Source: Verrucomicrobiia bacterium (GTDB taxonomy: Bacteria; Verrucomicrobiota; Verrucomicrobiia; Palsa-1439). Taken from it: 64,000 nucleotides of DNA. A program made the translations under genes and the position numbers. A model generated the notes under the pieces. That model was not told where the DNA came from. It searched no databases and saw nothing but the letters and a program-made list of their open reading frames with translations. This document shows, piece after piece, positions 32,897 to 51,387 of the stretch; the first letter of the stretch is position 1; the number at the start of each line of letters is the position of its first letter. The stretch spans positions 10,215 to 74,214 of the forward strand of contig JBBISF010000004.1 in NCBI GenBank assembly GCA_037441425.1, in the 5' to 3' direction.

Positions 32897-33835
32897 TTGC
32901 CGAATATGGGTGGATGGCGTATGCTGGCCGCCGTCTTGTTCGACATGGAAACCGCAGGACACTTTGCCAGCACCGCCGTCGCCACACCGCCGTTCGCCAA
33001 GCGAGCCATGCGCGCGATCTGGTCGGTGTTGCCGCGGTGTGCTCTCAGTTACAACTTGGGCAAGCTGGTGACCCGGACGTTACTCCGGCCATCCGCGACT
33101 ACATGGCCGGTGTTGGAACGATTTGGTGGGAAGTGCCCCATGGTGTTGGACCTCGGCAGCTTTGTCGCGAATGATCTTTATTGTCTGGATGATCATTATG
33201 AGGCGGTGACGCTCCGTTTGTGGCGCCGTTTGGCCCGACAATCCCGGACGATCCTCGATGTCGGCAGTCACATCGGGACTTTCGCGTTGGTTGCGGCTGC
33301 GGAAAACCAAGCGGCACGCATCATCGCCGTGGAAGCAACGAGTGGACACTTCACAAGTCTCCGGCACCATAGTGCCGCGTTTCCCAACGTCATTCCTGTG
33401 CAGGCTGCTATCGCCGACCGGGCGACGGAAATGTGGTTTTGCGCTGACGGAAGCAATGATGGTGGTGGCTATCTGAGTGTTGAACGCCCCCCGGGTGTCG
33501 AATGCCAGCCGGTTGCCACGCGCACGCTGGAGCAGCTTTGCGCCGAGTACGACATCGGCCAGTTGGATTTGATGAAGTTGGATGTGGAAGGGTTTGAGCA
33601 CAAGCTCTTGGCGGAGGACCGTGAATTTTGGCGTCGGCACGCCCCGACGCACCTGATTGTGGAGATCACCAGCGACCGCCGCAATTGTGGCCCGACGAAT
33701 GAATTGTTCCGCGCGATGGCGCGTCGTGGCTATCGCGCCCAGCGCGTTCAAGGATTGTATACGGTCCCATGGGGTAAGCCCGAGGCGCTGGCCAACTGGC
33801 ATTTTACGCGTGGGGAGGCGGCCAGCGCGCGTTGA
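32897..33835 (+). CDS. FkbM-family SAM-dependent methyltransferase
   Basis: ILDVGSHIGTFAL...LMKLDVEGFEHKLL matches the FkbM domain signature. Confidence 0.7.
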   Translation: MPNMGGWRMLAAVLFDMETAGHFASTAVATPPFAKRAMRAIWSVLPRCALSYNLGKLVTRTLLRPSATTWPVLERFGGKCPMVLDLGSFVANDLYCLDDHYEAVTLRLWRRLARQSRTILDVGSHIGTFALVAAAENQAARIIAVEATSGHFTSLRHHSAAFPNVIPVQAAIADRATEMWFCADGSNDGGGYLSVERPPGVECQPVATRTLEQLCAEYDIGQLDLMKLDVEGFEHKLLAEDREFWRRHAPTHLIVEITSDRRNCGPTNELFRAMARRGYRAQRVQGLYTVPWGKPEALANWHFTRGEAASAR

Positions 33836-34956
33836 TGCCAGAGCTACGGCCCAAGCGGATCATGGTGTTTTGTCTCTCGGGTTTGGGAGATGCCATCCTG
33901 GCGTCGGCGGCGCTGGCGGCGCTGGCCGCGCGTCCCGATCAGTTCCGCCTGACGCTCTTGACGATGTTTAGAAGTGTTAAGGAGTATCTGGACGACCAAC
34001 AGTTCACACCGGATGTTCGCTTGATCCAGTTTCTCGGAATGTCCAAGTGGAATATCTTCCACCATGCTTGGCCATTACGAAAAGAGCAGTTTGACGTCAG
34101 CGTGTTGCCATATGCAATGAACCGGCTGGGATATAATCTGATGAGTCGGGTCGTGGGGGCACGTTACCGGATCGGTTTCCGGTATCAACGGCAGTTCATC
34201 ATCAATGCCCCAGCGCTCAATCAGTGTGTAATTGATGAAGATCCGTCGTTGCACGCGGTGCAAGAGAACCTGCGTTGGGCATCGGTGCTCTGCAACACGG
34301 GAGTTGACGCGTTGCCGGATGAGTTTTCATACCGGATTCATCCGTCCGCAGTGACCGCTGCGGATGCGTATCTCAAGGAACATAAATTAGATCAGGCAGC
34401 GCCGCTTATCGGCATCCATGCCGCCTGCAATTCACTCAAGAACCAACACTGCCGCTGCTGGCCACCGATTCGTCTCGGCGAGTTCATCCGGCGGTTTCGC
34501 GAGCAAACGCCGGGGGCGCGCTTTATCTTGTTCGAGGGGCCAAGCGACCAACAGATGAACGAAGCCGTGGTCGTGGCTGCCGGTCCGGCATCAGGGGATA
34601 TTGTCGTCGCCAAGATGTTACCCCTGCGTTTGGTTGCGGCGCTCGTAAAGCGTTGTCACCTTTTTCTGAGCAACGATTCCGGTATGATGCACACGGCGGC
34701 GGCCTGTAAAGTGCCTTGTGCGTCCATCTTTGGGCCGACGAATCCAGCTTGGGTGCGGCCTTGGAAGACCCAGAACATTATCGTTAGCCGACAACTGCCG
34801 TGCAGCCCTTGTTTTTACTACTCCAGCCGGCCCTTGGTGTGTCCGGCTCACCTGGATTTTGCCTGTGTGCGTGACATCGCTGTGGACGACGTTCTCAACG
34901 CCGTCCAACAACTGCTCGCTCAAACTCATGTCCACGCAATCCCCGTCCAAACCTGA
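33832..34956 (+). CDS. Glycosyltransferase family 9 (heptosyltransferase-like)
   Basis: LSGLGDAIL...LFLSNDSGMMHTAAACKVPCASIFGPTNP are GT9 hallmarks. 4-nt overlap with the FkbM gene. Confidence 0.75.
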   Translation: MMPELRPKRIMVFCLSGLGDAILASAALAALAARPDQFRLTLLTMFRSVKEYLDDQQFTPDVRLIQFLGMSKWNIFHHAWPLRKEQFDVSVLPYAMNRLGYNLMSRVVGARYRIGFRYQRQFIINAPALNQCVIDEDPSLHAVQENLRWASVLCNTGVDALPDEFSYRIHPSAVTAADAYLKEHKLDQAAPLIGIHAACNSLKNQHCRCWPPIRLGEFIRRFREQTPGARFILFEGPSDQQMNEAVVVAAGPASGDIVVAKMLPLRLVAALVKRCHLFLSNDSGMMHTAAACKVPCASIFGPTNPAWVRPWKTQNIIVSRQLPCSPCFYYSSRPLVCPAHLDFACVRDIAVDDVLNAVQQLLAQTHVHAIPVQT

Positions 34957-37357
34957 GCTGCGTCAGGTCGGTCTTTGGATTACGCTGACAGCGGCGCTGG
35001 TGTATTGCGGGTGGCTGGGGTGGCACTGGTTGTCGCTGGGGTATAGCGACAAGGAACTGGCGGGATTTGTCTCCCGGGTCTGGGACATCCAACGGTCGCT
35101 GGCCGGGCATCACGGGCTGCCGTGGTGGACGCCGTGGTTCATGGGCGGAGCCAGCTACGGATTGGATTACTCCCATGGACTGTACCTGATTCCCTGGCTG
35201 CTGCTGGCGACGATGTTCAGCTTGCCGGTGGCGGGCAAGCTTTGCGCCTTGATCGCCATCTTTGCGGGAACGGTGGCGATGTACTGCTGCGCCCGGTATT
35301 TTCTTAAGAACGACTGGGCGGCAACTTTGGCGGCACTGGTGTTTCTGTTGCATCCCGAGCAAATCATCCGTGCCGCCGGGGTCGAGCAAATGACGGTCAT
35401 CATGTGCTTGCCGTTCATCCCGCTGACATGGTGGTGGTTCGCGCGGGTGCTGGATACCGGCAAACTGCGGGACTCGTTTTGGTGCAGTGTCAGCGCGGTC
35501 TGCCTGTTGGGAATGGACCACCAACAGGCGCTCATCCAGTACATGTTTCTGGCCTGCTATTTCGTTTATTGGCTTTGGAGCAATGGGGCTGTGCGACGGG
35601 TCTCAGCCATCCGGATGTGCGGACTCATCGCCATCTTCACCGTGGGCCTTGGCGCGTTCTTCATCGTCACCAGATTTGTGGAGTCGCATTACATCAAACA
35701 GTCTTACGATGAGCCGGTGACGGATTTGCAGCGCAATTACGCGTTCAAGAGTCTGTTGGCGCTGGTGGACCGGGATGGCACGATCACCCGGCAAGCCATC
35801 CGCGGCGCGGTCGATGCCGTCAACGCCCGCGGCGGTGTGCGCAGCCAAGCCGAATTGACCCAACTGCAACGGCTGGCTGGTCTCCAGATTGATTCGCCGG
35901 AGAAGTACGCGGGCCTCGTGTTGTTGGCGGTGTTGACGATCACGATGTTGTTCAACCGGGATCGGGTGAACCGCCGGTTATTCTGGTTTTTCGTGGGCAT
36001 GTTGTTGGTGACGGTGATGCTGGCCAGCGGACGCAGCAGTGTGTTCAGCGCCAACTGGCAAACCTGGCAGGCGCTCACGTCGCTCGCCGGGGTGCCGGGA
36101 TTGGTCACGCGCGCGATCTGGTTGGCGTTGCTGACGATGGCGACGTTTCTCGTATTGTTCATCCATCGCAAGCTCACGACCACCCGGAAACGCATCTTTG
36201 CCGGCGGGGCGTTGCTGGTGTTTCTCTTTCTGCCAGCGTTCCACATCCTCGCCGTCGTGCCGTTCTTCAAGGAGTGGCGCGCGCCGTTTGTGTTTTATGA
36301 TTTGCCGGCGGTATTCTTCGGCGCACTGCTGGCCGGGTTTTTCGTGACGGATGGATTGCCGTCTGCATCGCCGGCGAAAGTGGTGGCCGGTCTCGGGTTG
36401 TTGCTGGTGGTGGATTACTGGCCGTATCAGCAACCGATGAAAATCAATGACGTGCCCGGACACACGTTCCAAAACTTGCGCGCCACCTACACAGCACTGG
36501 CCGATGATCGGGACTGGGTTAAGACCTATGCATTTTCAGGACGACCATTCCATTTGCTCGGTCCCCGGTGGAGCGATAAACCACAGGTATCGGAGACGTT
36601 TGACAGCCAAGCGTACCCGCCCGGAATGGGGTTGCTCATCCCGAACATGGGTGGCGAATTATTCAATCTGGTCGGCGCGCGCTATGTCGTCTTCGACAAG
36701 ACCGATCCCGGCGGCAACGCTCAACTCGCCAGCCAATTGCGGCAAGCGGATCCGGTGGTGACCGAGAACGAAGATTTTGTCGTCTTTCGCAACGCCGGCG
36801 CGCGACCATATCTGACGGCGTACCTGCGCGCCTGCGCATACTTGGGCGATTTCCGGCAATCGTCGCGGCTAGCGCTTACCTTGTCGAACAAGGGCTGGCC
36901 ATTGGTGCAAATCAATTCGCCCCAAGAAGCCGCCAGTTACGAACGGGTGTACGCCCCGCCGGCCGAAGCGCTCCGGTTCAGCGGCATCCCGAATCTATAT
37001 GAACTCCATCCCGATTCGCTGCCGCTGTTGCCGGCAACGTCGAGTGAGCCAGTCACCCTGACCAGTGTCCAGTTGCGCCGGGAGAGCAATTACCGGATCC
37101 ACATGGAACTGACTGTGCTGAGTCCCTGCACCCTGGTCATTGCCGAGAGTTACTATCCTTTCTGGCAGGCGACGGTGGATGGGAAACCCTCCGCAGTGCT
37201 GCGGGTTAACTGCGGTTTGATGGGCCTGTCATTGCCGGCAGGACAGCACAGCATCGAGATGCTCTTTCGGCCGCCGCGCGCCTACGCGGTGGCGGCTGGG
37301 GTCAGTGTGCTGACATTGGTGGCGGGGTTGATCCTTTCACGGCGCGGATCTCCATAA
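34928..37357 (+). CDS. Large polytopic membrane protein, YfhO-like GT-C glycosyltransferase candidate (copy 1)
   Basis: ~810 aa. More than 12 N-terminal TM helices, ~300-aa extracytoplasmic domain, terminal TM helix. Start taken at ATG 34928, overlapping the GT9 end. Confidence 0.45.
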   Translation: MSTQSPSKPELRQVGLWITLTAALVYCGWLGWHWLSLGYSDKELAGFVSRVWDIQRSLAGHHGLPWWTPWFMGGASYGLDYSHGLYLIPWLLLATMFSLPVAGKLCALIAIFAGTVAMYCCARYFLKNDWAATLAALVFLLHPEQIIRAAGVEQMTVIMCLPFIPLTWWWFARVLDTGKLRDSFWCSVSAVCLLGMDHQQALIQYMFLACYFVYWLWSNGAVRRVSAIRMCGLIAIFTVGLGAFFIVTRFVESHYIKQSYDEPVTDLQRNYAFKSLLALVDRDGTITRQAIRGAVDAVNARGGVRSQAELTQLQRLAGLQIDSPEKYAGLVLLAVLTITMLFNRDRVNRRLFWFFVGMLLVTVMLASGRSSVFSANWQTWQALTSLAGVPGLVTRAIWLALLTMATFLVLFIHRKLTTTRKRIFAGGALLVFLFLPAFHILAVVPFFKEWRAPFVFYDLPAVFFGALLAGFFVTDGLPSASPAKVVAGLGLLLVVDYWPYQQPMKINDVPGHTFQNLRATYTALADDRDWVKTYAFSGRPFHLLGPRWSDKPQVSETFDSQAYPPGMGLLIPNMGGELFNLVGARYVVFDKTDPGGNAQLASQLRQADPVVTENEDFVVFRNAGARPYLTAYLRACAYLGDFRQSSRLALTLSNKGWPLVQINSPQEAASYERVYAPPAEALRFSGIPNLYELHPDSLPLLPATSSEPVTLTSVQLRRESNYRIHMELTVLSPCTLVIAESYYPFWQATVDGKPSAVLRVNCGLMGLSLPAGQHSIEMLFRPPRAYAVAAGVSVLTLVAGLILSRRGSP

Positions 37358-38243
37358 TCGCCCCGGCACCGGCGAGCCAACTCAACAGGGCGAGCAATAA
37401 ACCGGGAACGGCCAGCACGGCAGCAAGCAAGATCATCACAATGCCCGATGGAGTCCAGATGTGTTCACGATCAGCGCCGGACAGCCAGTGCTGCAACAAA
37501 TAAGGCGGGAAGCCCAGCCGGTTCAGCGCGCTCTGCACCCAGCCGAAGGGATCGTATTCCCAGCTCACGGTTCGCAGTGTTTCGGCCCGCAACCCGGCTC
37601 GTTCCAACGCGCCCCGCAACGCGTCCGGCGTGAAGTGGCCGAGATGCCGGGGGACATCGAGATGTTGCCAGTGTTGCCGGGAAAAACGGAACTGCCAACT
37701 CGCCAGATTCGGCACGCCAATCACCAACCGCCCGCCGGGCTTGAGCAGCCGGGCGCAGGCTGCCAAGCGTTCCCGCGGATCCGGCAGGTGTTCCAGGACT
37801 TGGTTCATCACGATTAGATCGAATTGTGGTTCGTCGCCTAGAGTGCCAAGTGCGCCCACCCGGACGTCCAACCCATGCTGGTCGCGCGCAAACGCGGCGC
37901 TTTCCTCCGTGCGCTCCAAGCCGGTGACCTGCCAACCGTGATCGCGCAGCGCGGCGAGCATCCAGCCGTGGCCGCAGCCGATTTCCAAAGCCTGGCCGGT
38001 ACCGCGTTCGCGCGTCCAAGCCCGGACACGCCGGCGGTGGATGAACCGAAAGAAACGCAGGATCAACGGATGATAGGCCCGGTAAGAGGCGGGGTAATAC
38101 GCATCAAGACTCGCGGGTGGCGGCCACACGAAAACAAATCCGCACGGCTGGCACCGGTGGAGGGCGAACGATTGACCGGTTACGTGATCGCGGGCATCGA
38201 GGAAATGCCCGGTCTCCTCCGCATGACAAAGCGGGCAGGTCAT
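37302..38243 (-). CDS. Class I SAM-dependent methyltransferase with N-terminal Cys4 zinc-ribbon
   Basis: CPLCHA...CQPCG ribbon, then LEIGCGHGW methyltransferase motif I. ATGA overlap with the upstream GT2. Confidence 0.7.
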   Translation of the reverse strand: MTCPLCHAEETGHFLDARDHVTGQSFALHRCQPCGFVFVWPPPASLDAYYPASYRAYHPLILRFFRFIHRRRVRAWTRERGTGQALEIGCGHGWMLAALRDHGWQVTGLERTEESAAFARDQHGLDVRVGALGTLGDEPQFDLIVMNQVLEHLPDPRERLAACARLLKPGGRLVIGVPNLASWQFRFSRQHWQHLDVPRHLGHFTPDALRGALERAGLRAETLRTVSWEYDPFGWVQSALNRLGFPPYLLQHWLSGADREHIWTPSGIVMILLAAVLAVPGLLLALLSWLAGAGAIMEIRAVKGSTPPPMSAH

Positions 38244-39151
38244 GGTCGCGGATGATTGTAGTGCGACAGTTTCCAATCCACCACGCTGAGCGGCCGGGCG
38301 ACCTGATCCTTGTAGGTCCGCGCCAGATAAATGCAAATGACCATCAGGAAGAACGCGACGTAGATAAAATCGAGCGCCACCAACCAGTGGAACTTGTCAT
38401 TGATGACCAACGCGATGTTCAGCGCGATCAGCAACGGGAACGCGTACACCGACAACCGCAGCGGGAACGTGGATGAGCTGAGGATGCCGGCCACGGCAAA
38501 GACGATGGCGCGCCAAAGATTGTAGTGGGTCTGGCCGATGATGCGTTTCTGCCGGGAGTAGGGGATGCCTTTGCGTTGGAACCCAACGTGGGCGACTTCG
38601 GTGCGCAGAAACGGGAACGTGGAATGGTTCGCCAAAATCGCGTCGCGCACCGGGGCGGAGACGAGAAAGAACTCCGCCATGTCGAGGACAATATCGCTGT
38701 CGGCGACCAGGCGGTTCAACCGGTAGAACGCCTTGCGCGCGAGTTGCCAGGGAAGCGGTTCAGGACGCTCGTCGCGCCGCCCATAGACGATGTCGTGGCC
38801 GGCTTCCCATTCGGCGATGAACTGGGGAATCATTTCCGGCGGGTCTTCGCAGTCCACGTCAATGATCGCCACCGCCGCGCCGCGCGCGTGGCGCAGACCG
38901 GTGGCGACGCTGGCTTCGTAGCCGAAATTGCGCGAGAGCGTCAGCACCTGCACCTGCGGGTTCTGCTCTCGGAGTTTGAGAATCGCCGACAACGTCCGGT
39001 CGGCGGAGCGGTTGTTGGTGAAGATCAACTCGAAGTCATACCGGTTGGCCAGCGGCGCGAGGGCCTTCTGCAACCGCTCATAAAACAACGGGATGGCTGT
39101 CTCTTCGTTGAACACCGGACAGACGATCGAAATCAACTGACGCTCGCTCAT
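38240..39151 (-). CDS. GtrB/ArnC-like GT2 polyprenol-phosphate glycosyltransferase (two C-terminal TM helices)
   Basis: ISIVCPVFNEE, DVDCEDPPE (DxD). Two TM helices at the C-terminus as in GtrB. ~304 aa. Confidence 0.75.
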   Translation of the reverse strand: MSERQLISIVCPVFNEETAIPLFYERLQKALAPLANRYDFELIFTNNRSADRTLSAILKLREQNPQVQVLTLSRNFGYEASVATGLRHARGAAVAIIDVDCEDPPEMIPQFIAEWEAGHDIVYGRRDERPEPLPWQLARKAFYRLNRLVADSDIVLDMAEFFLVSAPVRDAILANHSTFPFLRTEVAHVGFQRKGIPYSRQKRIIGQTHYNLWRAIVFAVAGILSSSTFPLRLSVYAFPLLIALNIALVINDKFHWLVALDFIYVAFFLMVICIYLARTYKDQVARPLSVVDWKLSHYNHPRP

Positions 39152-39930
39152 GATAGGTGTTGCCGCCACCAGTTTATCGTTTCGCGCAAGCCGGTGTCGA
39201 GATTGTAGCGAGGCCGCCAACCGGTGGCGAGCAACCGGGTGTTATCAGCCACGATAGGCAGCGGGTCGCCGGGAGCGTAGGGGCGCGCGCCAAACTTGAG
39301 CAGTTCCGGTCGTCCGATGATCGCGCCAATCTGACCGGCCAGCGCGCGGACGGTGATCGGCTGGCCGCTGCCGATGTTCACGGCCCCGGTGAGATTGCTT
39401 TCCGCGACGGCGACGATGGCCCGCGCAACATCCTCCACGTGCAAGAAGTCGCGGACCTGTTCGCCGGGGGTTAGTTCTGCCGGTTGGCCGCGCAGGAGTG
39501 ATTGAATGATGTACGGCACCAGCCGTCGCGGGTCTTCGCGCGGACCATATTGGTAGAACAACCGCGGCCAGGCAACTGGCGTGTCGAGTTGCTGGAGCTT
39601 CTCAAAGAGTTCCAGTTTGCATTGCGCGTAGAGCGTGGTGGATTCACGCTCGATACAGGTGCCAATGGCAACAAAACGTTGGGTGTTGACTTCCTGGGCC
39701 AAGCGAAGACTGGCGGTAACCCATTGCTGGTTCAGTGGTGAGTCGAGGTACTTACCGGGTTCGGCGTACCACGCGAGGTGAAGGCAGATATCGAACTGCG
39801 AACGCGGAAAACGGAAACCAGGCGAGAGCAGATCGCGGCCGAGGGTGGTCACTTCGTGACCGGCCTGTTCCAGTACAGCGGCGACGTGGAAACCGATAAA
39901 GCCGGTGGCGCCGGTGAGCAGGACTTTCAT
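39148..39930 (-). CDS. NAD(P)-dependent sugar epimerase/reductase (short RmlD-like 4-ketoreductase candidate)
   Basis: MKVLLTGATGFIGFHV Rossmann N-terminus. 260 aa. Coupled between the RmlC-like gene and the GT2 gene. Confidence 0.65.
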   Translation of the reverse strand: MKVLLTGATGFIGFHVAAVLEQAGHEVTTLGRDLLSPGFRFPRSQFDICLHLAWYAEPGKYLDSPLNQQWVTASLRLAQEVNTQRFVAIGTCIERESTTLYAQCKLELFEKLQQLDTPVAWPRLFYQYGPREDPRRLVPYIIQSLLRGQPAELTPGEQVRDFLHVEDVARAIVAVAESNLTGAVNIGSGQPITVRALAGQIGAIIGRPELLKFGARPYAPGDPLPIVADNTRLLATGWRPRYNLDTGLRETINWWRQHLS

Positions 39931-42642: not shown

Positions 42643-42645
42643 GGT

Positions 42646-43416: not shown

Positions 43417-43560
43417 TGGCAAATTAAGAAAGCCGGAGGCGCGGCGTCTTTGTTGATGTGGGTGCCACAACGAAGTTGGTAACCAGTTCTCACGGTTTTG
43501 CCAGCAGGTTTCTAGCATTCGGCTGGCGCTCGGTCAAGAATGGGACGCTTTACGATTTAA

Positions 43561-43651
43561 TTTTGATGTAGGGACAATGCTCTGCATCAAAATCTCTGTT
43601 TGTGATGTCCCGCGTCGACCAAGGTTTGGAGGTTTGACGCGCGTTGGTCGA
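43561..43651. promoter_or_regulatory. Two 8-bp inverted repeats plus a GTTTGGAG triple direct repeat in the divergent rfbF/lipoprotein control region
   Basis: TTTTGATG-N16-CATCAAAA and TCGACCAA-N21-TTGGTCGA. The region is lower in GC than the flanks. Confidence 0.25.
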
Positions 43652-43806
43652 GTTTGGAGCCTTTTTTGTAATTCTCCTCTGAACAGGTTCCAGGTAACGA
43701 GGTCAAGTCAAGGAAGGATCTGCCGATTTGTCTTTACAGGCACCGAGGGAGGATTTATCGGTCGGCCCGGTGGAGAGCCGTAATCCAACCCAGAGGAACA
43801 ATCATC

Positions 43807-44307: not shown

Positions 44308-44428
44308 TGCCTTGGGATGGGGCTGGGGAGACAGGAGGATTTCTATAGGGCCAAAACAAACAAAACTACCCGGCGAATTAGGGCGCTTTGCGGTTGAATT
44401 TTGAACGAAGGGCAACTAACTTGCGCGC

Positions 44429-45097
44429 GTGTCCAGCATCCTCACAACAGCAACTTTGCAGGTGCGGGTCCTTGAGGTGCGCCCGCTGACCGAAGCGACC
44501 TATGTGCTGCGATTGGAACGGCAGGGTGTGGCGTTTCGGGCCGGGCAATCCATCACGCTGGGTGTCAGCCGGATGCGAGTCAATCGCGAATACACAATTT
44601 ATTCGGGGGAACAGGACGATTACATCGACGTGCTGATCCGAGAGATTCAAGGCGGCACGGTTTCAGTAGCCTTACGCCGCTGTCCCCCGGGTGAACTGCT
44701 GGAGTGCAACGGCCCGTTCGGTTCATTTGTCATTCCAGAGCCATCAGATCGGTTGCGAAAATACCTTTTTATCGCTTCCGGCACTGGCATTGCCCCATAC
44801 CATTCAATGGTCCGGACCCATCCTGAGCTTGATTACCGGATCATCCACGGGATTCGCAATGCGCGGGAACAGTATGACCTTGCGGACTACGACCATGCCC
44901 GTTATGTCGCTTGTGTGACCGGTGAACCCGGTGGCGATTTTTCCGGGCGCGTCACCGCCTATCTCCACCAACACCCGGTCGATCCCGGCAGCCACTGCTA
45001 TTTGTGCGGCAACGGTCGCATGTTGACGGCCGGCTACGAACTGCTCCGCGAACAAGGCGTGCCCAGCGACCAGATTCATCTGGAGGCGTTTTTCTGA
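44429..45097 (+). CDS. Ferredoxin-NADP reductase-like FAD/NAD(P)-binding oxidoreductase
   Basis: REYTIYS (RxYS FAD motif), FIASGTGIAP NAD(P) motif. 222 aa. GTG start. Confidence 0.65.
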   Translation: MSSILTTATLQVRVLEVRPLTEATYVLRLERQGVAFRAGQSITLGVSRMRVNREYTIYSGEQDDYIDVLIREIQGGTVSVALRRCPPGELLECNGPFGSFVIPEPSDRLRKYLFIASGTGIAPYHSMVRTHPELDYRIIHGIRNAREQYDLADYDHARYVACVTGEPGGDFSGRVTAYLHQHPVDPGSHCYLCGNGRMLTAGYELLREQGVPSDQIHLEAFF

Positions 45098-46653
45098 TGC
45101 GCGTGGCCATTTCGTATCCGCCGATAGTTAACGAGCTGGGCCAGAAGGCCATGGTCTCGCAGAACCGCAACGTCCAGTATTTCAAGACGCCGACGTATCT
45201 GTTGCCGGTGGTGCATGCGCAAGCGGCCACCTGGTTGCGTGATCTCGGTCACGAGGTGTACTGGGACGACGGCAATGCTCAATTGAAAACCTTTGCGCAG
45301 TGGTACCGCGATTTGCTGGCATGGCAACCGGACCTAGTGGTGTTCGAGAGCACAACCCCGGTCATGAAGTTTTACTGGCGGCTGATCCAGCGGCTCAAAC
45401 AAGACCGACCGGATATCATGATCGTTATGACCGGCTATCACTCGATGCGGATGCCGTTCGAGACGATGAACAAGTGTCCTGTGGACATTGTCTTGCGCAG
45501 TAATCACGTCGATTTCGTGCTCAGCAAATTGGTGCCGTTTATTACCACGCACCCGGACTGGCGCACCACCTGCGCTCTTGAAGGATTGTTTATTCGCACG
45601 GCCAACGGTGAGCAACGGCAGACCGGCAGTTTCAAGCAGATTGAGCCGCTCGACAATTCGCCTGATGTGGATCGTGACCTGGTCCAATGGCAGCGGTACG
45701 CGTACGAGAACGGCAATTTTCTGCGAACGCCCGGCACCTACGCCACGAGCGTTGTCCGCGATTGCACATTCGGTAAGTGCACCTTCTGCCGCTATAACGG
45801 TCCTGATCTTACGTTTTCGATGCGATCGGTCCAGCGCAGTCTCGACGAATACCAGCGACTCATCGAGCAATACGGCGTCCGCGAAATCTTTGATGATTCT
45901 GGCGTGTGGTACCGCGGCAAGGAAGCCCGCGAGTTTTGCGAGGGACTCATCGCCCGCGGGCTGCACCGAAAGGGTTGCTACTTCGGCCTGAACACACGGT
46001 TTGCCTACCTCGATGAGGAAACCATCCAGCTCATGGGCCAGGCGAATTTCCGGTTCGTGTTGCTTGGCTTGGAAGCGTGCGACGACGAGACGCTCAGCCG
46101 GTTGAACAAGGGGTATCAAGTTGTGGACGTTGAACAGAATCTGCGCTGGTTCACCAAGTACGGTCTGCATCCGCACCTGACCGTCATGGTCGGTTACTAT
46201 TGGCAGACGCAGCAACAACTGGATCAGACCGTCCAGACGGTCCGGCAATTTATGTTCCAGGGCCTCGCGCGGACGCTCCAAGTCACCATCTGTACCCCGC
46301 TGGATTTCACCCCTTACCACCAAGAATGCTTGGACCAGGGCGTTCTGCTCACGGACGACTACGACGACTTCGACATGAGCAAAGTCATCGTGAAAACGCC
46401 GATCCCACACGAGCGGCATTACGAGGCCATCCGTCAGATGTACGGGATTGCCTTTCATCCGAAATTTCTCGCACGGCAAATTGCTTTCCTTGCCTCAGGT
46501 CGCATTCGGGATTGGGAATTCTTGTTCACTTACGGTTGGCGAGCTTTACGCCGCGTGCGCCAACACATCTTCAACTTGACTCAGGCCCGCCAACTTCAAA
46601 AACCGGCCAGCGGTGATGCTCACCACGCCGACGAACCCGCGTTGAACTCGTGA
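45097..46653 (+). CDS. B12-binding (class B) radical SAM protein
   Basis: N-terminal cobalamin-binding-like domain. Cys cluster CTFGKCTFC (Cx4Cx2C variant). ~518 aa. TGATG overlap with the reductase gene. Confidence 0.7.
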   Translation: MRVAISYPPIVNELGQKAMVSQNRNVQYFKTPTYLLPVVHAQAATWLRDLGHEVYWDDGNAQLKTFAQWYRDLLAWQPDLVVFESTTPVMKFYWRLIQRLKQDRPDIMIVMTGYHSMRMPFETMNKCPVDIVLRSNHVDFVLSKLVPFITTHPDWRTTCALEGLFIRTANGEQRQTGSFKQIEPLDNSPDVDRDLVQWQRYAYENGNFLRTPGTYATSVVRDCTFGKCTFCRYNGPDLTFSMRSVQRSLDEYQRLIEQYGVREIFDDSGVWYRGKEAREFCEGLIARGLHRKGCYFGLNTRFAYLDEETIQLMGQANFRFVLLGLEACDDETLSRLNKGYQVVDVEQNLRWFTKYGLHPHLTVMVGYYWQTQQQLDQTVQTVRQFMFQGLARTLQVTICTPLDFTPYHQECLDQGVLLTDDYDDFDMSKVIVKTPIPHERHYEAIRQMYGIAFHPKFLARQIAFLASGRIRDWEFLFTYGWRALRRVRQHIFNLTQARQLQKPASGDAHHADEPALNS

Positions 46654-47663
46654 CGTCGTCCGGGGCATCCATCCTCATCGCCCTGCCGGCCGCGACGCGC
46701 TATTTGGACGAGTCCCTCGCCGCGCTCGAGCGCCAGACGGTTCGCGATTTTGAAGTCATCCTCTTGCCGGACGCGCCTTCGGGTCGGTCGTGGCCCGCGT
46801 GGTGCCGGGAAGTCCCCACCGGTCGGCGGCGCCCGGCCGAAAAACGCAATCGGGGTATCGCGGAAGCGCACGGGGCCATCATTGCGTTTCTCGATGACGA
46901 CGCGTGGCCGGTTGACCGGTGGCTGGAAGCGGCGCTGCCGCACTTCAATGATCCCGGCGTTGTCGGCGTCGGTGGTCCCGGCGCGACGCCGGCGCATGAT
47001 CCCTTCTGGGCACAACTCAGCGGGCGGGTATATGAAAATGTACTGGTTTCAGGTGGATACCGGTGTCGGTACCGGGCCGGCTCGGCGCGGGACGTGGACG
47101 ATTGGCCAAGCTGCAATTTCTTTGTGCGCACGGCAGTCGTCCGGCGGCTCCACGGTTTCCGCACCGACTATTGGCCCGGCGAAGACACCTACCTGTGTTT
47201 GGAACTGACGCAGACCCTCCGCCGGCGCATCGTCTATGAACCGCAGGCGCTGGTTTATCATCACCGGCGGGCGCTGTTTCTGCCGCATCTCCGGCAGATC
47301 GGCCGGTACGGACTGCATCGCGGCTATTTTGCCCGGCATTTTCCCAGTACCTCGCGGCGACTGAGTTACCTGATGCCTTCGCTATTGGTGTTGGGATTGG
47401 CGGGGGGCGCACTCGGCAGCGCGTTCCTGCCGGGGCTGCGCGGGCCCTATGTTACCGGGGTGGGATGTTACCTGTTGGCCACACTGGGCGCGGCGGTCTC
47501 GTCACGCCCGCACGTTTGGCTCTTCACCTGGTTCGGCATCATGGCGACGCATGTGGTGTACGGCGTGCGGTTCCTGATGGGGTATTTCTCCACCCGACTG
47601 CCCGGCAGCGTGCAGCGATTTGATCACCCATCAGAAGACGACCCGAATTTCGACCGTAAATAG
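46650..47663 (+). CDS. GT2-family glycosyltransferase with C-terminal membrane anchor
   Basis: ILLPD, FLDDDAWP (DxD), C-terminal TM helices. GTGA overlap with the radical SAM gene. Confidence 0.7.
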   Translation: MTSSGASILIALPAATRYLDESLAALERQTVRDFEVILLPDAPSGRSWPAWCREVPTGRRRPAEKRNRGIAEAHGAIIAFLDDDAWPVDRWLEAALPHFNDPGVVGVGGPGATPAHDPFWAQLSGRVYENVLVSGGYRCRYRAGSARDVDDWPSCNFFVRTAVVRRLHGFRTDYWPGEDTYLCLELTQTLRRRIVYEPQALVYHHRRALFLPHLRQIGRYGLHRGYFARHFPSTSRRLSYLMPSLLVLGLAGGALGSAFLPGLRGPYVTGVGCYLLATLGAAVSSRPHVWLFTWFGIMATHVVYGVRFLMGYFSTRLPGSVQRFDHPSEDDPNFDRK

Positions 47664-48457
47664 ACTATGCCGACGGCGAACCGCAGGCAGTACAACGCCA
47701 GCACGTGGATTGGACGGGAGAGGAAACGCTTCCATTTTCCCTGTTCGAGAAACACTCCAAAGTAACGGTACCAAAGCCCAAATTGTTTCTTAGTAATCGC
47801 GTCGCGCCCCCACTTGGTAAAGTACGTCGCGAAGTTCTGCGCGTAGTAAGCTTTCTTGCGGATGTACCGGCGAAAATCAAACTTGCCTTCGTTGTGCAGT
47901 AGATGTGTGTCGGCCAACGCAAATCGCCCCCTTACAGCCAGTCGCCGGTCGAGATCCCAGTCTTCCGGCCCACACAGGTTGGGGTCATAACCGCCGATCT
48001 CAACGAATGTTGCCCGGTGGATGAAGCGCACGGCGTCAATCGGCGTCGTGTTATAAAACGACCGTTCAAAATTCTGCACGCTGATCCAGAAGCTTGTGCC
48101 CACGATCTTTTCCGGGATGAACGCGGCGATTACATCCGGTACCGCCACGACGGCTAGGCATGCGCGTACTAGCGTTGGCGCAACCATCATGTCGGCGTCG
48201 AGAAACAGCAGAAACTCCCCGGTGGCTTGTGCCGCGCCAAAATTGCGCTGCGCCGAGCGTTCGGGACCGATCTGATAGAAGCGAACACCATATTTGCTAG
48301 CGACGGCAGACGTGTCGTCGGTGGAGAAGTTGTCCACGACGATGATTTCCAGTTGTTCCTGTGGGTAATCCAGAGCGCGAACTGCGGCGAGGCAGTCGTC
48401 GAGAAACCGTCCCGCATTGCGCGTGGGAACAATGATGCCAACCCGCGGTTCAGCCAT
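47624..48457 (-). CDS. GT2-family glycosyltransferase
   Basis: VGIIVPTRNAGRFL, VVDNFSTDDT, LFLDADMM motifs. Confidence 0.7.
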   Translation of the reverse strand: MAEPRVGIIVPTRNAGRFLDDCLAAVRALDYPQEQLEIIVVDNFSTDDTSAVASKYGVRFYQIGPERSAQRNFGAAQATGEFLLFLDADMMVAPTLVRACLAVVAVPDVIAAFIPEKIVGTSFWISVQNFERSFYNTTPIDAVRFIHRATFVEIGGYDPNLCGPEDWDLDRRLAVRGRFALADTHLLHNEGKFDFRRYIRKKAYYAQNFATYFTKWGRDAITKKQFGLWYRYFGVFLEQGKWKRFLSRPIHVLALYCLRFAVGIVYLRSKFGSSSDG

Positions 48458-48484
48458 GAACACAGCGAATACAATCCCGAGGCC

Positions 48485-49732
48485 ATGCTGGCAATCATTT
48501 TATCGCATGGCCTTGGTCGGCCTGCTCTGGTACAAAGTTTATCTATGCACAAAGAGGGGGCGCAGAGCTTGCAAGAAGTGCGTGTGGTGATAGTGCTGCA
48601 CTACTACGCCACGGGGCCCGGTCAGGAACTACATGGGTGGCTGGTTGGAAAGCGAATCGCCGAAGCAGCGCTGTTGGAACACCCGTTCCCTTATTCCGAT
48701 CGCTCGTTCGCCCGTTGGGAGCGCTGCTCTCCTGACGGCAAGCTCGCCGGGCAAAATTTTCCGAGGTGGGTTCGACCCATGTTTCTGCGCTACACGTTGG
48801 ATTTTATCCGCACGCTGCGTCTGGTTCTGCGCGCCGGCGTCCGGTATGACTATTATGTTGGAAATGGTGCGTTTAACACTGCACCCGGTATCATTCTGCG
48901 GTGGCTCGGCAAAGTTCACCACGTGGTTCTCTACACGATTGACTACGCGCCTCAGGCGGGTGGCAATCGCCTCTACGAAATGGCGTACCGGTGGATCGAT
49001 CGTTTTTGTTGCCGGCGAGCGGATGTGATTTGGAATCTATCGCCGCGGATGCAAGAGGCCCGACAGAGAGACGGTTTGCAGGTGCGATTCTGTGCACCGG
49101 TAGTGATCGTGCCCCACGGTACCCATGCGACAGCACTGGCCTGTCTATTGCCTGGAAACCCTGACCCGTTGCGGGTTGCTTTCATGGGGCACGTACAAGA
49201 GAAGTCCGGTTTGCAACTTTTCCTCGAAGTCATGCCGGAGTTAGCGCAGGAACTTCCCGGGTTACGGCTCGAGGTGTTTGGTGATGGCCCTTATCTGCCC
49301 CGATTGCGTGAGCAGGTGATCATGCGAGGGCTCACTTCGTCCGTTGCCTTTCATGGGTTTATTCCAGACCACGTCGAATTGGAACGTCAATTGGCACGTT
49401 GTGGGGTGGGGTTGGCGCTCTACCATCCCGAGACGGCCGGGTTTTCTTGGTTGGCTGATCCCGGTAAACCGAAGGTTTACCTCGCTTGCGGATTGCCGGT
49501 CATCATCACGAATGTTCCGTCCGTTGCCGAGGAAATCGAGCGTCGCAAAGCCGGGATCTCGATCCGGTTCGATGTTGCCGAGCTGCGAATGGCCCTGCAT
49601 GCCGCGATCTGCAACCACGGTATGTACCGAGCCAACGCTTTGGCGATGGCCAAGGAATTCAATTGGGACTGCGTCTTTGATCGAGCCTGGCAGGAGACGC
49701 AGGCACTAGTCAAACGGGAGCAGGAACGATGA
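48485..49732 (+). CDS. GT4-family glycosyltransferase
   Basis: C-terminal Glycos_transf_1-like region (E-x7-E context, GLPVIITNV). Start ATG 48485 after GAGG; alternative 48548. Confidence 0.7.
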   Translation: MLAIILSHGLGRPALVQSLSMHKEGAQSLQEVRVVIVLHYYATGPGQELHGWLVGKRIAEAALLEHPFPYSDRSFARWERCSPDGKLAGQNFPRWVRPMFLRYTLDFIRTLRLVLRAGVRYDYYVGNGAFNTAPGIILRWLGKVHHVVLYTIDYAPQAGGNRLYEMAYRWIDRFCCRRADVIWNLSPRMQEARQRDGLQVRFCAPVVIVPHGTHATALACLLPGNPDPLRVAFMGHVQEKSGLQLFLEVMPELAQELPGLRLEVFGDGPYLPRLREQVIMRGLTSSVAFHGFIPDHVELERQLARCGVGLALYHPETAGFSWLADPGKPKVYLACGLPVIITNVPSVAEEIERRKAGISIRFDVAELRMALHAAICNHGMYRANALAMAKEFNWDCVFDRAWQETQALVKREQER

Positions 49733-50526
49733 AACGAATTGCCCGCTGCTTCGCATTACAAGTTAACGGTTTGTTGCCGTTTCTCTATCCGTTGTGCCAT
49801 GTGGTTCGACGGGGTAATTGGTTCCGTGGCGTGTATCGTTACGGTCGTGACTATCGGCGTTACCGGATGGCAGAGCGCTCCGGCGACCCATTTCCGTTAC
49901 GTTTTTTCAATACCTACCCGCAACTATTTGACCGGTTTGAGCCGGCGGGCAATGTTCCGCGCCACTATTTCCTGCAGGATCTGTGGGCTGCGCAAAAAGT
50001 ATTTGCGTCGCGCGTGCCGGTTCATTACGACATTGGTAGCCGGGTGGATGGCTTTATTGGGCATTGCGCGATATTTTGTCAGGTGGTCATGCTCGACATC
50101 CGTCCCCTCGCACTCAAAGTTCCCAACGTCGAGTTCCATCACGCCGACGCCACGGACATGAGTGATATTCCGAACGGAAGTATTCCTTCGTTGTCTTCGT
50201 TGCATGCCGTCGAACACTTCGGTTTGGGTCGGTACTGCGACCTGGTGGAGCCGGGAGCGCATGAAAAGGCGCTGCGGGAGATGATGAGGGTGTTAGCTCC
50301 AGGCGGTAACCTGTATTTGTCGGTTCCTGTCGGGCGGCAACGTCTGGAGTTTAACGCACATCGGGTATTTGATCCGGTTGGGATTCTCGAACTCTTGCCC
50401 AGCCTGAACCTGCAAGAGTTTTCGGTGATCGATGACGCCGGTGTATTGCGAGAGAACGTGCGGCCCGCAGAATACCGACAAGCCGGATACGCTTGTGGCT
50501 TGTTCTGGTTCTGCAAGTCTGTGTAA
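49729..50526 (+). CDS. SAM-dependent methyltransferase (DUF268-like)
   Basis: SLSSLHAVEHFGLGRY motif. ATGA overlap with the GT4 gene. Confidence 0.55.
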   Translation: MKRIARCFALQVNGLLPFLYPLCHVVRRGNWFRGVYRYGRDYRRYRMAERSGDPFPLRFFNTYPQLFDRFEPAGNVPRHYFLQDLWAAQKVFASRVPVHYDIGSRVDGFIGHCAIFCQVVMLDIRPLALKVPNVEFHHADATDMSDIPNGSIPSLSSLHAVEHFGLGRYCDLVEPGAHEKALREMMRVLAPGGNLYLSVPVGRQRLEFNAHRVFDPVGILELLPSLNLQEFSVIDDAGVLRENVRPAEYRQAGYACGLFWFCKSV

Positions 50527-50537
50527 GTTGCGAATAA

Positions 50538-51377
50538 TTGATGAACCGGACCGATTTCTTTGCCAGCGCCGAAGCCGTGATTCGAGAGACGATTGCTACA
50601 GTCAGTACTGTATACGGCAAATCGGGAAGCCACATTGATATTAGTTCTCCATCCTACCGGCGGCCGATCTTGGAGAGAATTTGGCGCGTGCTGTACGCAA
50701 ACGCGTGGCGCCCAGATGTAGGAAAACTCACGGTTCTTGATATAGGGGTGGGCAAGGGATGGAGTTCGTACTTGCTGGCTGCGCATTGCCGTCGGGTATT
50801 GGCATGTGATCTCTCCACTACCATTTCCGAGCAGATGGAATTGAATGACCAACCGCAGTGGCAACGCCTTCTCTGGAAGCACTTTGTTGCTGGTCGTCCA
50901 AATTTGGCTTACGTTTTTTTCGACGGGACAGCTTTGCCGGTGACGACCGAGTCAGTGGATCTCGCCGTTGCGGTGGCAGTCTTCGAGCATGTCGGCAACA
51001 ATACACTCGACCACACCGCCCGACGTGCTTGGTTGCGAGAGGTATCTCGCGTGCTCAAACCCGGCGGGCGGCTACTGATTGTCGCGTGTCCCAACCGTCA
51101 TTCCTATGCCGAAGCTCTCGCCCGCCTGCTGGGGTTGCCGCATCATACCAAGACGTTTTCCGGCAACGAAATGCGAATGCTCATCGAAGAGGCCGGGTTG
51201 GCAATCGAGGAGATTCAGTTTACCCACCCGTTTATTGATTTCTATCCGCTTCGCCTGATGCAACGACTGTGGTCGGTGTGCTACGGCTGTGGGATTCGCT
51301 TTGTTGAACCAGTTCTTGGGGTGCTACCGCTTCGCTACGTGTGGCATCACCATTGCGTAATTGCAGTTCGCAAGTGA
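50538..51377 (+). CDS. Class I SAM-dependent methyltransferase
   Basis: VLDIGVGKGW motif I, LKPGGRLLI motif. Confidence 0.65.
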   Translation: MMNRTDFFASAEAVIRETIATVSTVYGKSGSHIDISSPSYRRPILERIWRVLYANAWRPDVGKLTVLDIGVGKGWSSYLLAAHCRRVLACDLSTTISEQMELNDQPQWQRLLWKHFVAGRPNLAYVFFDGTALPVTTESVDLAVAVAVFEHVGNNTLDHTARRAWLREVSRVLKPGGRLLIVACPNRHSYAEALARLLGLPHHTKTFSGNEMRMLIEEAGLAIEEIQFTHPFIDFYPLRLMQRLWSVCYGCGIRFVEPVLGVLPLRYVWHHHCVIAVRK

Positions 51378-51387
51378 CGACAGCCGG

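Follow-up and report, generated by a model that had tools for sequence, protein, structure and literature searches.

Probable mosaic organization of a methyltransferase-rich envelope-glycan island in a Verrucomicrobiia bacterium

Layout of the methyltransferase-rich island

This analysis concerns a glycan locus at positions 32,897-51,377 of a 64,000-nucleotide stretch of DNA from a Verrucomicrobiia bacterium (assembly GCA_037441425.1, contig JBBISF010000004.1), a stretch that we refer to as the window. An earlier note on the sequence had picked out six genes in these ~18 kb, a B12-radical SAM enzyme among them, as an unusual concentration of methylating enzymes in one glycan locus, and when open reading frames (ORFs) were listed, translated and scanned with Pfam and NCBIfam, all six were recovered where the note had placed them. 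They comprise five intact S-adenosylmethionine (SAM) methyltransferase genes (FkbM, zinc-ribbon, 3-C-methyltransferase, DUF268-like and class I) and one B12-type radical SAM gene. The six ORFs are all uninterrupted, with no pseudogenes among them, and SAM-binding glycine motifs can be read in the translations of all five class I-type enzymes. The description of two of the enzymes as zinc-ribbon methyltransferases also stands, with PF08421 present in the 3-C-methyltransferase and a conserved CxxC...CxxC pattern in the other (ZnMT), and seven glycosyltransferases together with a complete predicted cytidine diphosphate (CDP)-sugar pathway bear out the reading of the region as a glycan locus. We consider it probable that the span is the larger part of a ~23-kb mosaic envelope-glycan island made up of separable sugar-decoration modules, a model that starts from observed family memberships, gene order and cross-genome linkage and deduces glycosylation routes from them.

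The island extends ~4.5 kb past the flagged end, to ~55,815, which adds a second YfhO-type protein (YfhO2), a further glycosyltransferase (GT2c) and a flippase-like protein. As a whole it occupies ~23 kb (~32.9-55.8 kb), bordered on the left by a GH63-like hydrolase and on the right by argG. With genes on both strands and five or more transcription units, it cannot be one operon. The glycosyltransferases of the locus number seven (GT9, four GT2, GT4 and one more, a YfhO-type GT-C enzyme), two of the seven lying beyond the flagged end, and the island as a whole holds two putative GT-C transferases of the YfhO type. Gene families were scored against the curated cutoffs of Pfam and NCBIfam, and gene starts were refined separately. 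The genes are as follows, with window coordinates and strand.

32897-33835 (+): FkbM-family SAM methyltransferase (PF05050, TIGR01444); start uncertain, with alternatives at 32906, 32921 and 32945
33835-34956 (+): GT9-family (heptosyltransferase-like) glycosyltransferase (PF01075, 84.5 bits)
34928-37357 (+): YfhO1, YfhO-like polytopic membrane protein, putative GT-C transferase (PF09586, 28.1 bits)
37302-38243 (-): ZnMT, zinc-ribbon class I methyltransferase with a C-terminal membrane helix (Methyltransf_23, E = 8e-28)
38240-39151 (-): GtrB/ArnC/CsbB-like GT2, putative polyprenyl-phosphate sugar synthase (PF00535, 89.5 bits)
39148-39930 (-): short member of the short-chain dehydrogenase/reductase (SDR) family, putative nucleoside diphosphate (NDP)-4-keto-sugar 4-reductase (PF01370, 82.6 bits)
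39927-40436 (-): RmlC-like 3,5-epimerase (PF00908, 180 bits)
40433-41665 (-): NDP-hexose 3-C-methyltransferase of the TylC3/TcaB9/KijD1/MtmC type (PF08421 + PF13489 + PF08484)
41662-42642 (-): CDP-glucose 4,6-dehydratase-like SDR (TIGR02622 as best match)
42646-43416 (-): glucose-1-phosphate cytidylyltransferase, RfbF (TIGR02623, 369.4 bits)
43807-44307 (+): small hypothetical lipoprotein (LTGC lipobox read from the sequence)
44429-45097 (+): FNR/Fre-like flavin reductase (FNR) with no Fe-S domain (PF00970 + PF00175)
45097-46653 (+): B12-type radical SAM enzyme (Radical_SAM PF04055, 47.6 bits)
46650-47663 (+): GT2a, membrane-associated GT2 (PF00535/PF13632)
47624-48463 (-): GT2b (PF00535, 77.6 bits)
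48485-49732 (+): GT4-family glycosyltransferase (PF13692/PF00534); start at 48485 or 48545
49729-50526 (+): DUF268-like SAM methyltransferase (PF03269, 40.7 bits; Methyltransf_11)
50541-51377 (+): class I SAM methyltransferase, orphan (Methyltransf_11, E = 2e-15)
51388-53835 (-): YfhO2, second YfhO-like putative GT-C transferase (PF09586, 34.2 bits)
53832-54545 (-): GT2c, soluble DPM1/AglJ-like GT2 (PF00535, 101 bits)
54559-55815 (-): membrane protein with ~10 hydrophobic segments, possible flippase of the multidrug/oligosaccharidyl-lipid/polysaccharide (MOP) or Wzx-like type (without Pfam match)

Methyltransferases make up 5 of the 18 genes in the span, and a methyltransferase domain was found in none of the ~29 annotated genes elsewhere in the window (Fisher p = 0.0056); against an assumed genome-wide methyltransferase frequency of 1.5-3%, the corresponding p is 6e-6 to 1.5e-4. 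The unusual density proposed in the earlier note thus stands as an enrichment over the rest of the window, but comparable or higher loads of methyltransferase and radical SAM genes occur in related loci, and given how common glycan loci with several methyltransferases are among relatives, we do not regard the density as exceptional.

The branched-deoxysugar cassette and its genomic setting

Seven genes form a minus-strand operon, read from 43416 to 37302 in the order cytidylyltransferase, dehydratase-like SDR, 3-C-methyltransferase, epimerase, SDR reductase, GT2 and ZnMT. RfbF is a glucose-1-phosphate cytidylyltransferase equivalog, its TIGR02623 score of 369.4 bits exceeding the cutoff of 300.25. 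The best match of the dehydratase-like SDR, TIGR02622, reaches 214.5 bits and stays below its cutoff (278.45), as does the TIGR01221 match of the RmlC-like epimerase (139.6 bits, cutoff 155.8); because C3 is quaternary after methylation, the latter enzyme would be usable only as a 5-epimerase. The 3-C-methyltransferase has a three-domain architecture in which each domain scores above its cutoff (PF08421 91.3, PF13489 60.6 and PF08484 200.5 bits), and three solved sugar 3-C-methyltransferases can be aligned to the whole of it, namely 4rv9 (D-mycarose 3-C-methyltransferase; E = 5.7e-100), 5t64 (7.5e-89) and 3ndi (TcaB9; 7e-82). The alignment with 4rv9 covers residues 15-420 and keeps the active-site stretch FDTIYHEHL. 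In its three domains, its full-length alignment and its Y-x-E-H active-site motif, which corresponds to Y222/E224/H225 of TcaB9 (residues named in PDB mutant entries), the enzyme matches TylC3, TcaB9, KijD1 and MtmC (3ndi, 5t64, 4rv9). The 4-reductase is 260 residues long as against ~303 in its orthologs, having lost ~20, 14 and 4 residues in three in-frame deletions, of which one falls between the conserved Thr and the catalytic motif YxxxK, itself retained; the shortened sequence is identical in two sources (NCBI and Logan), and the loss of ~43 residues makes the activity of the enzyme uncertain. The GtrB-like GT2 has two C-terminal hydrophobic helices, and its best NCBIfam matches, to PgfS (163 bits, cutoff 500) and ArnC (80 bits, cutoff 529), both fall below cutoff.

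Ordered according to the established logic of L-mycarose and virenose biosynthesis (PMC3539893), the cassette would convert CDP-glucose to CDP-4-keto-6-deoxyglucose and carry this through 3-C-methylation, 5-epimerization and 4-reduction, with CDP-6-deoxy-3-C-methyl-L-hexose as the predicted product. At least one C-methylation, by the 3-C-methyltransferase, is firmly predicted from these sequence features. The predicted product belongs to the same class as CDP-vinelose (CDP-6-deoxy-3-C-methyl-2-O-methyl-L-talose) of Azotobacter vinelandii, a compound of the 1960s literature. The likeness, that of a CDP-linked, C3-methyl-branched and further O-methylated 6-deoxy-L-hexose, is offered as no more than a lead. 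We know of no gene cluster for vinelose, and no paper on vinelose, Azotobacter or 6-deoxy-3-C-methyl sugars was found in the literature searched.

The last gene of the operon encodes ZnMT (37302-38243), a protein of ~310 residues that belongs to a distinct family with conserved C3/C6/C31/C34 (CxxC...CxxC), an HLDVPRHLxHF motif and, at the C terminus, a hydrophobic helix that is conserved as well. By sequence, its nearest characterized relatives are the generic UbiG and BioC, with scores below threshold. It is 28% identical to the core of the 3-C-methyltransferase of the window, with a His aligned at the position of TcaB9 H225, and its AlphaFold (AF2) model, with a predicted local distance difference test score (pLDDT) of 88.5, has MtmC, KijD1 and TcaB9 as all of its top 17 Foldseek matches in the PDB. 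No PF08484 domain was found in ZnMT, and the Y-x-E-H motif is replaced by HLDVPRH, of which the His alone is retained. Given a core fold closest to the sugar C3-methyltransferases but lacking this domain and motif, we regard ZnMT as sugar-methyltransferase-like and outside the family: zinc ribbon and methyltransferase core are shared with TylC3/TcaB9 by fold, and the membrane helix takes the place of PF08484. In five of the six contexts examined, ZnMT stands in the same cassette as a 3-C-methyltransferase, a cytidylyltransferase-type nucleotidyltransferase (NTP transferase), a dehydratase and a reductase; the sixth, a Nitrospinota copy (L076), stands alone. As judged from the modeled fold and this company, ZnMT probably adds a second methyl group to the same branched deoxysugar.

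The cassette is not confined to the window and also turns up independently in other phyla (related loci in other genomes are designated here by L numbers). It occurs with a GT-C neighbor in five loci, the partner being YfhO in the window, L037 and L043 and PMT_2 in L077 and L039, the last of these from a Chloroflexi metagenome-assembled genome (MAG). A GT2 of the polyprenyl-phosphate type lies inside the cassette in four of the five and, in L037, a GT2 is found a few kb upstream. L037 and L043 have the cassette next to YfhO and GT9 and, over a distance of 10 kb, are without a radical SAM module. Its recurrence across separate loci marks the cassette as a portable unit that would make, re-methylate, lipid-load and export a branched sugar.

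Next to the cassette on the plus strand lie FkbM, GT9 and YfhO1, which we refer to as the backbone. FkbM scores above both of its cutoffs (PF05050 57.8 bits, cutoff 22.7; TIGR01444 69.9 bits, cutoff 37.7) and overlaps the start of GT9 by 4 nt, which indicates translational coupling; an ortholog with 70% identity occupies the same position in L078 and is absent from the cassette-only loci L037 and L043. The matches of GT9 to the heptosyltransferase II and III models are below cutoffs, and its orthologs stand beside YfhO in L043 (57%) and L078 (64%), with a Glyco_transf_9 gene beside YfhO in L037. YfhO1 has at least nine hydrophobic segments and a PF09586 match of 28.1 bits on its C terminus (cutoff 28.5); its orthologs are 49-52% identical, their YfhO matches being unmarked in L078, weak in L037 and faint in L043.

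L078 is collinear with the window and reads SLT-domain protein (unmatched in the window), FkbM (70% identity), GT9 (64%), YfhO (49% to YfhO1), FNR (77%), radical SAM enzyme (86%), GT2a (73%) and GT2b (72%). It is without window positions 37,329-44,444, a 7.1-kb segment that comprises the entire C-methyl sugar operon and the lipoprotein gene, and the corresponding junction lies at 6203-6285 of L078. Since FkbM-GT9-YfhO1 and FNR-radical SAM-GT2a-GT2b are contiguous in L078, the 7.1 kb must have been inserted here or deleted in the relative. At the edges of the segment only short, chance-like direct or inverted repeat matches were seen, and no mobile-element signature was found.

The radical SAM/flavin reductase pair and the variable tail

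The start of the radical SAM gene overlaps the stop of the flavin reductase gene by 1 nt, and the pair is widely distributed. Over 1400 homologs from many phyla make up the radical SAM family, with 67-86% identity as compared with 37-77% for the surrounding genes. Their labels include Verrucomicrobia, Kiritimatiellae, Lentisphaerae, Nitrospinae, Gamma- and Betaproteobacteria (among them Polynucleobacter wuianus), Leptonemataceae, Lambdaproteobacteria, Glassbacteria and an "archaeon" MAG, which amounts to at least eight phylum-level labels overall, and a distant branch at 34-37% identity is found in candidate-phyla-radiation bacteria and Gammaproteobacteria. In 17 of 22 related loci, a flavin reductase gene is adjacent to that of the radical SAM enzyme. 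The commonest glycosyltransferase partner is GT2a, with homologs of 37-73% identity in 9 of the 22 as well as in L078 and L041, sometimes fused to a second GT2; GT2b and the GtrB-like GT2 occur in six of the 22 loci each. The distant branch retains GT2c-like and GT2a-like neighbors without the reductase, and GT-C enzymes of the YfhO/PMT type and relatives of the 418-residue membrane protein of the island recur near the radical SAM gene.

The enzyme itself has an invariant cluster motif, Cx4Cx2C (C223/C228/C231), a modeled Rossmann-like N-terminal domain and a B12-binding match, PF02310, just under its cutoff (29.7 bits against 32.1). In NCBIfam it stays short of all model cutoffs, the best matches being BchE (107 bits, cutoff 481) and HpnJ (95 bits, cutoff 578). 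With 18-58 bits against cutoffs of 282-700 it is not a member of the methylase models (HpnR, PhpK, GenK-like, C-methyltransferases of ribosomally made peptides with post-translational modifications (RiPPs), and MgmA). When the family profile was compared with the PDB, the best match was AprD4, a diol dehydratase acting on an aminoglycoside sugar (E = 7.5e-10), and AprD4 was also the best fold match of the AlphaFold model (pLDDT 74; predicted template modeling score 0.79), with template modeling (TM) scores of 0.63/0.71. The next fold matches were the cobalamin enzymes TsrM, MgmA, CysS, OxsB and TokK, the methylases among them at TM ~0.6. No curated family or solved structure covers the enzyme. 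AprD4 has a Rossmann-like domain yet uses no cobalamin. Among the enzymes named, HpnJ, BchE and OxsB are non-methylases, and GenK, GenD1 and MoeK5 methylate sugars (PMC9204698). As the fold is shared by methylases and non-methylases, the enzyme can be called "class B-like" but not a demonstrated methylase. With AprD4, HpnJ, GenK, GenD1 and MoeK5 it shares the combination of Rossmann domain and radical SAM barrel, a sugar-pathway context and a GT2 partner; it differs from all of them in its identity of at most ~16%, its Cx4Cx2C motif and its translationally coupled FNR/Fre-like reductase.

Two accounts of its chemistry were weighed. Slightly the likelier of the two, though still short of even odds, is that the enzyme modifies a sugar without methylating it, either by dehydrating or deoxygenating a nucleotide- or polyprenyl-linked sugar in the manner of AprD4 or by rearranging its ring in that of HpnJ, the sugar being one that GT2a made beforehand or transfers afterward. 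AprD4 tops both the sequence-profile and the fold searches, the partnership with GT2a/GT2c persists even in the branch at 36% identity, and the very strong conservation of the family suggests a small, universal substrate. HpnJ, which carries out a ring contraction, likewise acts downstream of a GT2, HpnI, on a lipid-linked sugar. Its reaction takes place on bacteriohopanetetrol glucosamine (PMC9204698). Against this account, the identity to AprD4 is only ~16%, and no product-specific downstream enzyme was identified; moreover, the partner of AprD4 is an SDR and not a flavin reductase. With slightly more doubt, we also entertain the possibility that the enzyme is a cobalamin-dependent C-methyltransferase that acts on an unactivated sugar carbon in the manner of GenK, GenD1 and MoeK5, the Fre-like reductase regenerating cob(I)alamin and the Fe-S cluster. 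The Rossmann domain and the near-threshold B12 match fit such a role, many homologs carry PF02310, the fold resembles the methylases TsrM, MgmA, CysS and TokK as well, and paralogous B12 radical SAM genes accompany class I methyltransferases in the variable tails of related loci; characterized cobalamin radical SAM enzymes are, furthermore, mostly methylases, several of them acting on sugars (PMC9204698). The best NCBIfam, profile and fold matches nevertheless point elsewhere, the methylase models stay far under their cutoffs, and the fold cannot discriminate between the two chemistries.

A Fom3-like role in phosphonate synthesis was considered as a general explanation for the radical SAM enzyme and rejected, since phosphoenolpyruvate (PEP) mutase is absent from the island-gene scans and most related loci are without signs of phosphonate genes. 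In Polynucleobacter wuianus (GCA_018881935.1; L002, 8585-16076), the reductase, radical SAM and GT2a genes lie between a CDP-alcohol phosphatidyltransferase and phosphonate-type genes (Fom1/Fom2/FomC-like genes, with a Fom1-like cytidylyltransferase-PEP mutase fusion, a phosphonopyruvate decarboxylase-like gene and an iron-containing alcohol dehydrogenase among them), which suggests a phosphonate-decorated glycan and a possible Fom3-like role of the radical SAM enzyme in that genome.

Beyond GT2a the gene content varies. GT2b occupies the same inverted position in L041 and L078 (64-72% identity). L041 and L042, with radical SAM enzymes 79% identical to that of the window, keep FNR-radical SAM-GT2a-(GT2b)-GT4, but the DUF268/class I methyltransferase tail is replaced by another GT4, a different class I methyltransferase, two further B12 radical SAM enzymes and one of the SPASM type. 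Up to two extra B12-type radical SAM paralogs, at 21-26% identity, are present in L041 and L042 and in the Nitrospinaceae/Nitrospinales MAG loci L008, L010, L011 and L012, several of these glycan loci carrying class I methyltransferases as well; such paralog-rich loci point to widespread radical tailoring of glycans in these lineages.

The DUF268-like methyltransferase has a partial PF03269 match above cutoff (40.7 bits, cutoff 25) and full-length homologs at 42-56% identity. Its relatives occur in 29 metagenome loci (28 of them within that identity range), where the annotatable neighbors are GT2s, a Wzx flippase, FkbM methyltransferases and CDP-sugar genes including a DegT-type enzyme, and where one locus (L061) has three methyltransferases in a row. 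The presence of these relatives in polysaccharide loci supports a glycan role, and no characterized member of the family was found. The class I methyltransferase is a near-orphan with four homologs in ~5.8 billion clusters. Its nearest relative with context (44%; L074, 9110-10783) stands beside another methyltransferase and a beta-oxidation cluster of acyl-CoA ligase, thiolase, enoyl-CoA hydratase (ECH) and acyl-CoA dehydrogenase (ACAD) genes, and a role in sugar methylation is suggested solely by the position of the gene in the window. Sequence searches of the PDB gave no match for FkbM or DUF268 and one marginal match for the class I methyltransferase.

Downstream of the flagged span, YfhO2 scores above cutoff in its C-terminal region (PF09586 34.2 bits, cutoff 28.5) and has at least nine hydrophobic segments, and GT2c has weak NCBIfam matches to ArnC, AglJ, PpgS and a Dol-P hexose transferase. 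The membrane protein at 54559-55815, of a ~420-residue family, has no Pfam or NCBIfam match; it gives a weak, collinear 17-bit alignment to a Polysacc_synt (Wzx-type) protein of L002, and its relatives lie beside radical SAM, GT2 or YfhO genes in L003 (19266-20552), L013 (16225-17478) and L029 (6449-7720). For this 418-residue protein and for the lipoprotein at 43807-44307, no Pfam match appeared even at E <= 10.

Modular reading of the island and its relation to known systems

In the mosaic model that we favor, the modules would share a common logic in which a sugar is synthesized in the cytoplasm, loaded by a GT2 on polyprenyl phosphate and, once it has crossed the membrane, transferred on the outer side by a GT-C enzyme of the YfhO type. 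In Module 1 (37.3-43.5 kb, minus strand), the GtrB-like GT2 would load the doubly methylated branched deoxyhexose and YfhO1 would transfer it to a periplasmic acceptor, which may be a structure that the adjacent GT9 builds and FkbM methylates. Module 2 would consist of the reductase-radical SAM pair, GT2a, GT2b, GT4 and the DUF268/class I methyltransferase tail, together with the convergent flippase-like protein, GT2c and YfhO2, and may build or decorate a second lipid-linked sugar or oligosaccharide. This product would be assembled by GT2c, GT2a, GT2b and GT4, modified by the radical SAM enzyme with electrons from the coupled reductase, methylated by DUF268 and possibly by the class I methyltransferase, flipped by the MOP-like protein and then transferred by YfhO2. 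A cluster of BamA (five POTRA domains and Omp85), Skp/OmpH and LpxD at 15176-19175 of the window indicates a host with an outer membrane that contains lipid A and, together with the conserved GT9 neighbor, makes the lipopolysaccharide (LPS) core a reasonable guess for the acceptor; protein O-glycosylation, as in the Pgf system, is equally possible.

If the modules are separable, the high methyltransferase count is the sum of a backbone enzyme (FkbM), two cassette enzymes (the 3-C-methyltransferase and ZnMT) and a variable tail (DUF268 and the class I methyltransferase). Two of the six flagged genes are tied with good evidence to sugar methylation, both predicted to act on one rare branched sugar, on which one C-methyl group is firm and a second is probable. 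O-methylations by FkbM and DUF268 are plausible, and the class I methyltransferase and the radical SAM enzyme may or may not be methylation steps. The heavily O- and C-methylated glycan of the earlier note is accordingly retained in one firmly predicted C-methylation, its remaining steps being of the lower grades just given. A methylase role of the radical SAM enzyme is not supported by its best matches (AprD4, BchE and HpnJ, all non-methylases), nor is a glycan role supported for the class I enzyme, which has no independent link to glycans. Closer homology to small-molecule (non-sugar) methyltransferases was not what we found, the closest structural relatives of both zinc-ribbon enzymes being sugar C3-methyltransferases.

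The reading of the earlier note, that a single locus produces a single glycan heavy in O- and C-methyl groups and methylated by all six enzymes, seems to us quite unlikely. The six genes do fall within 18.5 kb, interleaved with glycosyltransferases and significantly denser than in the rest of the window, and the contiguity of the backbone with parts of Module 2 in L078 means that some modules may cooperate. The genes nevertheless divide into modules that occur independently in other genomes, on both strands and in at least five transcription units, with a pair of GT-C enzymes and two or more candidate lipid-sugar synthases; of the six enzymes, moreover, the radical SAM protein is not demonstrably a methylase and the class I methyltransferase is without glycan-linked relatives. 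It is more improbable still, to the point that we set it aside, that the deoxysugar and C-methyltransferase genes belong to a secondary-metabolite pathway of the antibiotic type. The closest solved homologs of the C-methyltransferase all come from actinomycete natural-product pathways, but no polyketide synthase (PKS), nonribosomal peptide synthetase (NRPS) or aglycone gene is present among the island genes scanned, the pathway is CDP- rather than deoxythymidine diphosphate (dTDP)-based, and the cassette is always paired with a GT2 of the polyprenyl-phosphate type and a GT-C membrane transferase. We rejected a secondary-metabolite origin on the absence of PKS and NRPS genes and the constancy of the GT-C partner.

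Several points weigh against the mosaic model as drawn above. The acceptor or acceptors and the order of the steps are deduced from context alone. Within Module 1, the GtrB-like GT2, the CDP-dehydratase and the RmlC-like enzyme score under the NCBIfam equivalog cutoffs, and the 4-reductase may be impaired by its deletions. The assignment of YfhO1 and YfhO2 is drawn from weak C-terminal Pfam matches (28.1 and 34.2 bits) and topology, and is putative to that extent. A GtrA-type flippase was not found in the island, and the flippase call on 54559-55815 is drawn from the 17-bit alignment. Finally, in a few genomes the FNR-radical SAM pair stands beside unrelated, non-glycan genes.

The mosaic model has counterparts in several characterized systems. 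A pathway to virenose (6-deoxy-3-C-methyl-gulose) has been proposed for the LPS of Coxiella burnetii (PMC3539893), and the likeness to it lies in a C3-branched 6-deoxyhexose destined for a Gram-negative envelope glycan and in the set of a 4,6-dehydratase, a TylC3-type C-methyltransferase, an epimerase and a reductase. The Coxiella route starts from guanosine diphosphate (GDP)-mannose or dTDP-glucose and leads into a conventional O-antigen, whereas the window would start from CDP-glucose, has a dedicated second methyltransferase and would deliver through polyprenyl phosphate and YfhO. The TylC3/TcaB9 systems likewise use dTDP and serve antibiotics, unlike the CDP-linked sugar, envelope glycan and lipid-carrier/GT-C route predicted here. 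With the three-component systems GtrA/B/C, ArnC/ArnT, CsbB/GtcA/YfhO, Pgf and PPPRS/MATE/GT136 (PMC5836110, PMC8035078, PMC11127046, PMC12041528) the island would share a putative GT2 polyprenyl-phosphate synthase with C-terminal helices, a putative polytopic GT-C enzyme (YfhO/PMT_2) and a possible MOP-type flippase. It differs from them in a predicted methyl-branched deoxyhexose donor with its own operon, an embedded membrane-anchored methyltransferase, a pair of YfhO paralogs in a host that has an outer membrane and no GtrA homolog found. The mycobacterial glycopeptidolipids (GPL), methylglucose lipopolysaccharides (MGLP) and methylmannose polysaccharides (MMP), the first two of which the earlier note had invoked, resemble the island in the clustering of several SAM methyltransferases with glycosyltransferases and in their methylated sugars. 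As far as is known, these systems use O-methylation only, on lipopeptide-linked or cytoplasmic polysaccharides, with Leloir glycosyltransferases and acyltransferases. The island differs from GPL and MGLP in its C-methylation, its GT-C transferases and its polyprenyl-phosphate architecture, and Pfam scans of its genes revealed no NRPS or lipopeptide core, no acyltransferases and no TylF/Rmt-type O-methyltransferases; with NRPS, acyltransferase and other hallmarks absent from the Pfam and NCBIfam scans, the comparison is reduced to an analogy.

The overall logic of a tailored sugar passed to a lipid carrier and transferred in the periplasm is already established, and nothing categorically new is claimed. 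In the literature searched we found no description of the cassette that combines a CDP-3-C-methyl-deoxyhexose with ZnMT, GT2 and GT-C, of ZnMT as a relative of the sugar C-methyltransferases that is truncated and anchored in the membrane, of the reductase-radical SAM pair, or of a module of radical SAM enzyme, ferredoxin reductase and glycosyltransferase. Three concrete units emerge: a portable sugar cassette, a membrane-anchored sugar C-methyltransferase relative and a conserved reductase-radical SAM pair, the last of which is also present in the cultivable Polynucleobacter wuianus and hence open to genetics. Methyl-branched and O-methylated sugars alter how hydrophobic and antigenic bacterial surfaces are and how phages or grazers recognize them, and in uncultured aquatic and soil lineages they are barely characterized. 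A bolder reading, which we think rather unlikely but worth stating, is that the reductase-radical SAM pair with its GT2 partners constitutes an unrecognized, widespread radical sugar-modifying system and that, combined with the cassette, the window would specify a doubly branched, polymethylated and chemically undescribed envelope glycan. The modification would be a C-methylation or deoxygenation at an unactivated carbon of a polyprenyl-phosphate- or nucleotide-linked sugar, and the pair is in fact 67-86% identical between Verrucomicrobiota and groups such as Nitrospinota, Lentisphaerota, Spirochaetes and the Gamma- and Betaproteobacteria, with a branch at 36% identity in the candidate phyla radiation. 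If this were true, the cassette would also supply the missing genetics for vinelose-type sugars.

Some observations concern the surroundings of the island. An Rfam scan returned three tRNAs only, and no cobalamin or SAM riboswitch was found near the locus. Directly upstream of the island, at 29921-32692, lies a 923-residue glycoside hydrolase of the GH63/MGH1-like type. The G+C content is 0.565-0.572 over most of positions 42000-52000 (0.600 at 46-48 kb), compared with ~0.60-0.63 in most of the flanks, a dip that would fit a surface-glycan region subject to horizontal exchange or fast evolution. Further upstream, a trypsin-like protease fused to a multi-blade WD40 propeller (23354-25237) adjoins an 844-residue protein with C-terminal HEAT repeats (25194-27728), and protease-WD40 and HEAT-repeat architectures of this kind are common in the Planctomycetes-Verrucomicrobia-Chlamydiae group.

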